From Escherichia coli (GTDB taxonomy: Bacteria; Pseudomonadota; Gammaproteobacteria; Enterobacterales; Enterobacteriaceae): a DNA stretch of 64,000 nucleotides. The notes beneath the pieces were generated by a model. The model did no database searches, had not been told where the DNA came from, and saw only the letters and a list, made by a program, of their open reading frames with translations. Position numbers and translations under genes: made by a program. The first letter of the stretch is position 1; each line of letters opens with the position of its first letter. Shown here piece after piece: positions 54,697 through 55,189 of the stretch. The DNA is taken from the NCBI RefSeq assembly GCF_003790525.1, contig NZ_CP033635.1; one strand, given 5' to 3'.

Positions 54697-54861
54697 GCCT
54701 TATCTCCACCTCTTCGCGTCATTACGCGGTATTCATTAAAGTGGCGAAAGCATGACAGCAATCACAAAAAAATGAAAATAACAAAAAGAGAAAACACTTT
54801 TGCCATTTTGCTAACAAACAGGAAGGAGATGCGAGGGAGAACGCGCTCCCTCGAGAGGAAA

Positions 54862-54951
54862 TCAGTGCAGCGCGGCAGTCAAACCCACGGCCACGATCAA
54901 ACCGAGGACGATAATCGTTGTTACCAGTGAAAATTTAAGGTCGGTGCTCAT
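54862..54951 (-). CDS. ynhF: Small membrane protein YnhF (29 aa)
   Basis: MSTDLKFSLVTTIIVLGLIVAVGLTAALH; AAGGAG Shine-Dalgarno sequence 7 nt upstream of the ATG; hairpin (54829-54852) just downstream; below the 60-aa ORF cutoff. Confidence 0.75.
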   Translation of the reverse strand: MSTDLKFSLVTTIIVLGLIVAVGLTAALH

Positions 54952-55189
54952 CAAGTTTTCTCCTTTTTTATTACCACACAAAAAGTGATATTACGCATTT
55001 TTACACACTGTGATGAAAAAATCTCCCGTCATTTATAATGATAAGTGTTTTTACCACTTCCCCTTTTCGTCAAGATCGGCCAAAATTCCACGCTTACACT
55101 ATTTGCGTACTGGCCATTGACCCCTTCCTGACGCTCCGTGTCGTTTTTCCGGCGTACCGCAACACTTTTGTTGTGCGTAAGGTGTGTAA

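Follow-up and report, generated by a model that had tools for sequence, protein, structure and literature searches.

The feature at positions 54820-54960 of the analyzed DNA is cydH (formerly ynhF, also cydY), an already known gene. We hold it as nearly certain that the observations reported here are explained by cydH, which serves cytochrome bd-I and would be expressed from a short monocistronic mRNA, together with the known gene blr and with the promoters, operators and leaders that occupy four other intergenic gaps. Both cydH and blr have long been known and named, and have been studied structurally or genetically, so that neither is a discovery. The window, that is, the whole 64-kb stretch of DNA that was analyzed, is collinear with the MG1655 genome at ~1,682,320-1,746,595, with an identity of ~98% in the alignment. 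The gene order in its first part is rstB-tus-fumCA-manA-ydgA-uidCBAR-hdhA-malIXY-add-ydgJ-blr-cnu-ydgK-rsxABCDGE-nth-dtpA-gstA and, after an interruption, continues as grxD-mepH-sodB-ydhP-cydH-purR-punRC-cfa-ribC-mdtK-ydhQ-valVW. In a BLAST search with the region 54300-55700, 5,425 of 5,426 complete genomes of E. coli gave a match, and SMS-3-5 is among those in which it is 100% identical. The elements of the cydH gene and its transcript are the following.

54862..54951, minus strand: cydH (ynhF) coding sequence, from the ATG at 54951 to the TGA at 54862; 29 codons plus TGA, product MSTDLKFSLVTTIIVLGLIVAVGLTAALH
54960..54965, minus strand: Shine-Dalgarno sequence AAGGAG, with the 8-nt spacer AAAACTTG ahead of the cydH ATG
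54832..54853, minus strand: cydH 3' stem-loop, CGAGGGAG-CGCGTT-CTCCCTCG, beginning 8 nt past the stop codon
54828 (MG1655 1737422), minus strand: Term-seq 3' end of the ynhF mRNA, classified as 'primary', 4 nt past the stem (PMC7815308 supplement)
54997..55005, minus strand: candidate extended -10 element of cydH, TG-T-AAAAAT, from which a leader of ~40 nt and a ~160-nt mRNA would be expected

In both MG1655 (b4602) and SMS-3-5, the interval 54862..54951 is annotated as 'cytochrome bd-I accessory subunit CydH'. In 29/29 residues, the encoded peptide agrees with chain H of PDB 6RKO, as it does with chains of 7 other PDB entries, all named 'Cytochrome bd-I ubiquinol oxidase CydH'; it also matches the NCBIfam equivalog model NF033411 (small_mem_YnhF) across model positions 1-29 of 29, with a score of 50.2 bits against a cutoff of 30. 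The hydrophobic core, a single helix, spans residues 10-28 (Kyte-Doolittle mean 2.53). For comparison, we used 80 loci around purR, one genome per species, from ~30 genera of Enterobacteriaceae. The 29-codon ORF is intact in all 80 loci, and in each of them cydH lies outside the cyd operon, flanked by ydhP and purR; nearly all have AAGGAG, or a sequence close to it, upstream of the ORF. When the substitutions relative to the window are counted, 353, 222 and 1278 fall in codon positions 1, 2 and 3, respectively (binomial p = 6.6e-215), and this excess at the third position implies purifying selection on the protein. A 52-codon ORF antisense to cydH (54772..54930, plus strand) was rejected as a gene, being unconserved across the loci.

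The protein itself is well characterized. Cryo-EM structures of E. coli bd-I unexpectedly revealed a fourth subunit, which mass spectrometry identified as YnhF; the protein is produced at low oxygen (citing Hemm et al.), retains formyl-Met, and is encoded apart from cydABX, between ydhP and purR (PMC6853902). CydH occupies a cleft formed by CydA helices 1 and 9, where it obstructs the site by which oxygen gains access in the Geobacillus enzyme (PMC8951039; PMC12648545), and top-down mass spectrometry detected intact CydH with formyl-Met at 100% coverage (PMC12529367). By transfer from the cited structures via the identical sequence, CydH is expected to bind CydA in this strain as well. The strong Shine-Dalgarno sequence directs the synthesis of a 29-residue, formyl-Met-retaining, single-helix inner-membrane protein, CydH, the fourth subunit of cytochrome bd-I ubiquinol oxidase. 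In the solved structures, CydH closes the broad entrance for oxygen that the Geobacillus enzyme has, so that O2 gets to heme d by a narrower channel.

The initial annotation held that ynhF is real, and this is borne out by the 29-codon ORF, the identity to 6RKO chain H, the top-down detection, the mapped 3' end and the 80/80 loci; the features that it named, AAGGAG, a single hydrophobic helix and a downstream hairpin, are all present. The interval that it delimited, 54820-54960, does hold the ORF and the hairpin, but the Shine-Dalgarno sequence at 54960-54965 lies just past its end.

The transcript appears to be compact. The stem of the downstream hairpin consists of 8 bp, 6 of them GC, and is followed by the tail CAUCUCCUUCCUGU, without a U-run; the 81-nt context folds at -20.5 kcal/mol. 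Folding of 81 distinct orthologous downstream sequences produced a hairpin at the same place, with a core of the GAGGGAG/CTCCCTC type and with a variable loop and flanking pairs. The published 3' end of ynhF is listed twice in the 3'-end table, with scores of 655,382 and 662,064, and ranks among the strongest of its neighbourhood (PMC7815308 supplement); the 61-nt sequence quoted for it is identical to the window. Because this end lies only 4 nt past the stem, we conclude that the hairpin defines the 3' end of the cydH mRNA. The missing U-run means that the hairpin is not a canonical intrinsic terminator, and a terminator scan that required a T-run did not list it. The end may therefore reflect an unusual kind of intrinsic termination or else, given a hairpin that has no U-tract, trimming or processing to a protective stem after downstream (possibly Rho-dependent) termination.

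At the other end of the transcript, the TG and AAAAAT of the candidate -10 element are invariant in the alignment of 30 genera, and the middle base is variable; a scan with a generic sigma-70 consensus called no promoter at this position. This conserved TG-n-AAAAAT extended -10 would drive a short monocistronic cydH mRNA of ~160 nt. A scan of 54940-55260 with the FNR, CRP and ArcA consensus sequences yielded no convincing site, the best being a chance-level 8/10 FNR match over the cydH start codon. A paper on PurR/FNR titration that was considered as a lead for the cydH-purR region was set aside, as its subject is upp-purMN instead.

The region between cydH and purR also contains the sole non-tRNA Rfam match in the window, which overlaps a PurR operator-like element.

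54859..55249, minus strand: full-length match to Rfam RF02081 'STnc550', 396.1 bits against a gathering threshold of 48
55190..55205, plus strand: PurR operator-like palindrome AGGCAAACGTTTACCT in the purR leader, a 13/16 match to the PurR box

The STnc550 match covers the cydH coding sequence, the cydH promoter and leader, the purR promoter, and the antisense of the purR leader. Model positions ~296-385 correspond to the cydH ORF and are modelled as unpaired, and one of the modelled helices is the PurR-box palindrome AGGTAAACGTTTGCCT. Across 30 genera, the 53 modelled pairs have a covariation score of 0.089, compared with 0.084 in shuffles, a value that was matched by 63 of 500 shuffles; pairs with a two-sided change number 13, compared with 13.0 in shuffles, and the covariation measures are no better than slid controls either. 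Because the family includes the cydH ORF and a helix formed by the PurR box, and because its pairs lack covariation support, we take it as mRNA plus regulatory DNA: STnc550 is essentially the cydH mRNA together with the divergent promoter/operator region rather than a structured non-coding RNA.

The spacer between the cydH and purR start codons, 297 nt in the window, is unusually conserved in both sequence and length across ~30 genera, the distance from ATG to ATG being 293-303 nt in almost every one of the 80 loci and 286 nt in one. The core of the PurR operator-like palindrome is invariant in 30 genera. We take this palindrome to be purR O1, reportedly described by Rolfes & Zalkin (1990); with the purR start site ~96 nt upstream of it, as reportedly placed there, the purR leader would be ~156 nt long. 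The near-constant spacer is plausibly filled by the purR leader, the purR promoter, the cydH promoter and the cydH leader. On the cydH-sense strand at ~55115, within the purR leader, there is also a 7-codon ORF with an SD-like AGGAAGGGG, the length of which varies between genera.

These observations bear on the alternative in which the locus would be primarily a non-coding or dual-function sRNA, STnc550, of ~390 nt, initiated adjacent to the purR start codon and running antisense through the purR leader and promoter, with the cydH ORF merely its 3' part and the RNA itself regulating purR or other targets. Such an RNA would be in line with the full-length 396-bit match to a family typed 'Gene; sRNA' and with the conservation of the spacer. 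However, the 3' quarter of the model is the cydH coding sequence, which evolves as a protein-coding gene; the modelled pairs show no covariation above shuffles; the helix at the operator is simply the PurR palindrome; the length of the spacer would be fully accounted for by the purR leader, the two promoters and the cydH leader, if the purR start site lies as stated above; and the name STnc550 was not found in the literature searched. We consider this alternative highly improbable. We give as little credence to a variant in which STnc550 would be a real cydH mRNA isoform of ~390-430 nt, with its 5' end adjacent to the purR start codon and antisense to the purR leader, operator O1 and promoter. 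Were it true, expression of the purine repressor would be coupled to the production of a respiratory-oxidase subunit, and the near-fixed length and high conservation of the 297-nt spacer in ~30 genera would be explained. The reading that we favour remains that of a short cydH mRNA next to a divergent promoter/operator region.

The second small gene, blr, is represented in the window by the following features.

22058..22183, plus strand: blr in the K-12/PGAP version, 41 codons, product MNRLIELTGWIVLVVSVILLGVASHIDNYQPPEQSTTVQHK, with a hydrophobic core
22046..22183, plus strand: blr read from the ATG that is conserved throughout the family, 45 codons, MWAVMNRL...
22209 (MG1655 1704702), plus strand: Term-seq 3' end of the blr mRNA, weak, with scores of 946 and 1115 (PMC7815308 supplement)

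Its product is Blr, a small bitopic membrane protein already known to associate with the divisome and described in published work as a 41-residue divisome-associated membrane protein and RseP substrate. The predicted product scores 91.3 bits against NCBIfam NF033231 (cutoff 40) and 87.9 bits against Pfam PF24673 (cutoff 27), and ~100 homolog clusters named 'division septum protein Blr' were found in Escherichia, Salmonella, Citrobacter, Enterobacter, Lelliottia, Leclercia and others. The mapped 3' end is located 26 nt past the blr stop codon (PMC7815308). That blr is real, as the initial annotation maintained, is thus upheld by the 41-codon ORF with its hydrophobic core, the match to the Blr model, and the publications on the divisome and on RseP. 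The same annotation placed both genes below the 60-aa cutoff of the ORF track. This is correct for cydH, for which the maximal ORF has 39 codons, but not for blr, because the stop-to-stop ORF that contains it starts at TTG 21983 and comprises 66 codons; a 66-residue version is annotated in some genomes.

The start of blr itself varies across the family. The comparisons on the blr side involved 8 genomes; the locus L089, which contains a Blr homolog, was left out on account of its frameshift-ridden assembly. The K-12 start codon is replaced by ATC or ATT in 3 of the 8 genomes (C. farmeri, Lelliottia and Enterobacter), and the in-frame ATG 4 codons upstream of it (22046) is present in 8/8. The 45-codon version that begins at this ATG is intact in 100% of these genomes (n=8), with 48, 30 and 154 substitutions in the three codon positions (p = 1e-24). 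The longer Blr homologs read M-x-x-[V/I]-[M/I/F]-N-R, and many of them have I or F at the position of the first residue in K-12; the NF033231 model begins at residue 2 of the 41-mer, which is consistent with the variability of the first residue. The Salmonella and Citrobacter annotations use a third in-frame ATG (22028, 51 codons), which is AAG in two genomes and frame-shifted in C. koseri. Judging from the alignments, the conserved start of the Blr family is 4 codons upstream of the K-12 start, and the E. coli product could have 41, 45 or 51 residues. In some genera, PGAP seems to impose non-ATG starts so that the 41-residue length is preserved. Annotation pipelines already call both cydH and blr through dedicated small-protein models.

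The initial annotation further proposed that four other intergenic regions, for which it quoted coordinate pairs that are exact, could hold additional small proteins or sRNAs.

29570..30178, plus strand: nth-dtpA gap, with the nth terminator hairpin at 29576-29595, followed by invariant blocks
22184..22455, plus strand: blr-cnu gap, poorly conserved save for the motif AAGCGCGTTAC (~22299), a hairpin of variable sequence after the motif, and the cnu ribosome-binding region
51511..51844, no strand assigned: grxD-mepH divergent gap, with conserved blocks adjoining both start codons and a variable middle
58529..58818, plus strand: punC-cfa gap, with the cfa sigma-70 promoter and the known 212-nt 5' UTR

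We aligned 17 intergenic regions from 8 to 79 genomes and scored every window ORF with 10 codons or more by start conservation, length conservation and codon-position bias; an earlier pass, with a minimum of 8 codons, had covered three of the four flagged gaps and the ydhP-purR gap. Among the 17 regions, only cydH and blr pair ORF integrity with a coding-type substitution pattern. Searches against Rfam, both at the gathering thresholds and at E <= 1, gave no match in the nth-dtpA, blr-cnu, punC-cfa or grxD-mepH gaps, and published Term-seq data list no 3' end in nth-dtpA or grxD-mepH (PMC7815308). Thus, the proposal of further small ORFs or sRNAs in the four gaps finds no support in the ORF scan, Rfam or Term-seq, and the cfa gap is a known leader. 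By comparison across genomes, the four gaps would hold promoters, operators and 5' leaders of the flanking genes, and probably contain no further small genes of at least 10 codons conserved across genera and no sRNAs known to Rfam.

The nth-dtpA gap, 609 nt in the window, measures 601-620 nt in 8 genomes, and in the alignment of these genomes, invariant blocks alternate with variable spacers and include a perfect palindrome of the CRP type, GTGATCAAGATCAC, at 29742-29755. The best ORF in this gap is a 12-codon antisense one with flat substitution counts of 15/15/11 and no coding signature, and from the alignment, the gap looks like dense regulatory DNA (transcription-factor sites) plus the dtpA leader. 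In the blr-cnu gap, there is no ORF with a coding signature. RNAalifold detected no consensus structure there because the hairpin columns misalign; folding of individual sequences points to a positional hairpin that is weak in E. coli. A weak 3' end has been mapped 11 nt before the cnu ATG (~22445) (PMC7815308). The best ORF of the grxD-mepH gap, with 17 codons at 51533..51586 (minus strand), upstream of grxD, is intact in 76% of the genomes, and its substitutions (189/273/222) are not coding-like. No ORF is conserved in the punC-cfa gap. The 212-nt cfa leader is a target of RydC, ArrS, CpxQ and GadF (10.1101/271551), and a Rho-dependent premature 3' end with a Rho score of 2.6 has been mapped within it, at MG1655 1741259 (window ~58665) (PMC7815308). 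The long 5' UTR of cfa explains the 290-nt length of this gap, which holds the leader of the cfa mRNA and not an independent sRNA or small-protein gene.

It is unlikely, in our judgment, that at least one of the four gaps encodes a small protein that is specific to E. coli or shorter than 10 codons, for example, a uORF in the dtpA, cnu or grxD leader. There is a precedent nearby in MdtU/YdgV, a 34-codon uORF in a long leader that was found only by ribosome profiling (PMC7815308), and each flagged gap contains 9-34 ORFs of at least 10 codons. The weak 3' end before cnu, along with a Rho-termination signal just inside this gene, hints at regulation at the level of the leader, and the start of the 17-codon ORF upstream of grxD is retained in 99% of the genomes, its length in 76%. 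Yet no candidate shows an excess of third-position substitutions, and besides cydH and blr, neither the curated annotation of MG1655 nor PGAP on SMS-3-5 lists any coding sequence shorter than 60 aa in the 64 kb; the text of the Weaver preprint names none of the four gap loci. YdgV was also considered as a missed gene within the window and was rejected, being the same as MdtU, upstream of mdtJI, outside the window. We therefore retain the reading of the four gaps as promoters, operators and leaders.

Altogether, the useful outcome of this analysis is mostly negative: conservation, Rfam and the published 3'-end maps show no other conserved small gene or known sRNA in the 64 kb. Therefore, the 60-aa cutoff hides only one annotated gene, cydH. 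Two observations might be of help to annotators, namely, that STnc550 is essentially the cydH mRNA with a divergent promoter, and that Blr has a conserved start 4 codons upstream of the K-12 one.

Compared with known systems, the window matches the 'enterobacterial sRNA' STnc550 of Rfam (RF02081) over its full length; however, although the family is typed as a non-coding sRNA, the matched stretch holds a translated, conserved gene and a divergent promoter region. Blr of the window is identical to that of K-12 in 39/41 residues, with TT instead of AS near the C-terminus, and in both genomes the gene lies between ydgJ and cnu; the family as a whole differs from K-12 Blr in the more upstream position of the conserved start codon. 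The small protein encoded at 54862..54951 shares its sequence, position and transmembrane helix with CydH/CydY/YnhF of E. coli (6RKO chain H, NF033411), from which it differs in nothing except that it comes from another strain. CydH resembles CydX, AppX and CydS in that all are proteins of fewer than 40 residues with one helix bound to CydA, but their sequences are unrelated. The gene for CydX belongs to the cydABX operon, and CydX sits on the face of CydA opposite to that of CydH, close to heme b558, whereas CydH is encoded at an unlinked locus and blocks the cavity on the heme b595 side.

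A full-length match to the Rfam family RF02081 ('STnc550 sRNA') spans positions 54859-55249 of the window on the minus strand and is made up of the cydH (formerly ynhF) coding sequence, the divergent pair of promoters, and the purR leader in antisense orientation. The PurR operator palindrome is modelled as one of the STnc550 helices, and covariation in the modelled structure was not above controls. The spacer between cydH and purR (54952-55249) is 293-303 nt long in nearly all of the 80 Enterobacteriaceae loci compared (286 nt in one) and includes extended invariant stretches; its conservation locally exceeds that of the third codon positions of cydH. 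The portion of the spacer that constitutes the purR 5' leader (~55098-55170) is strongly conserved.

For blr, three in-frame ATG codons are present in the region 22028-22060 (plus strand), at 22028, 22046, and 22058. The last of these, the start annotated in K-12, is replaced by ATC or ATT in 3 of the 8 genomes compared, and many homologs carry isoleucine or phenylalanine at this position; the ATG at 22046 is universal. The 41-aa Blr proteins predicted by the NCBI pipeline (PGAP) in Enterobacter require a non-ATG start codon. The maximal ORF containing blr consists of 66 codons, starting with TTG at 21983 (21983-22183, plus strand), and across public annotations, the reported lengths are 41, 45, 51, 53, and 66. 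Downstream of blr, the gap that precedes cnu harbors, within 22299-22340 (plus strand), a conserved motif, AAGCGCGTTAC, followed ~20 nt further on by a hairpin with a stem sequence that varies among genera. This hairpin is strong in Salmonella, whereas the E. coli counterpart is weak, with one base disrupting the MG1655 version.

The gap between nth and dtpA contains a perfect palindrome, GTGATCAAGATCAC (29742-29755), with CRP-type half-sites (GTGA-N6-TCAC), which is located ~430 nt upstream of dtpA and is retained in all 8 genomes, along with further invariant blocks, for example, AAATAGCAGAACATATCGCC and GTTATATGTAACAGATTATTACAAA. In the locus-tag series of E. coli SMS-3-5, ECSMS35_RS07910 is missing precisely at this gap; this tag may have belonged to a feature that was annotated and then withdrawn, or to a feature type outside the table's display. 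Elsewhere in the window, rsxC contains internal direct repeats of ~96 nt (26082-26503); the MG1655 and SMS-3-5 copies of the gene are 2223 and 2031 nt long, respectively, and that of the window strain is 2127 nt long, so that the repeat copy number varies among strains.

The published Term-seq map places the 3' end of the sodB mRNA at MG1655 position 1736114 (window ~53520, plus strand; PMC7815308), ~155 nt past the sodB stop codon and coincident with the stop codon of the convergent ydhP gene, which implies a long sodB 3' UTR. The gap between sodB and ydhP is the least conserved among the aligned gaps (mean identity 0.20). The sodB leader yields, at 52725-52829 (plus strand), a sub-threshold Rfam match to the SodB 5' UTR thermometer family (31 bits vs the gathering score of 98) that is probably not meaningful. 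Published 'orphan' 3' ends lie within the purR leader, at 55182 and 55238-55239 (plus strand), one of these 11-12 nt upstream of the purR ATG, and a Rho-termination call maps shortly inside cnu (MG1655 1704967). Together, these ends and the Rho-termination call suggest premature termination in the leaders of both purR and cnu.
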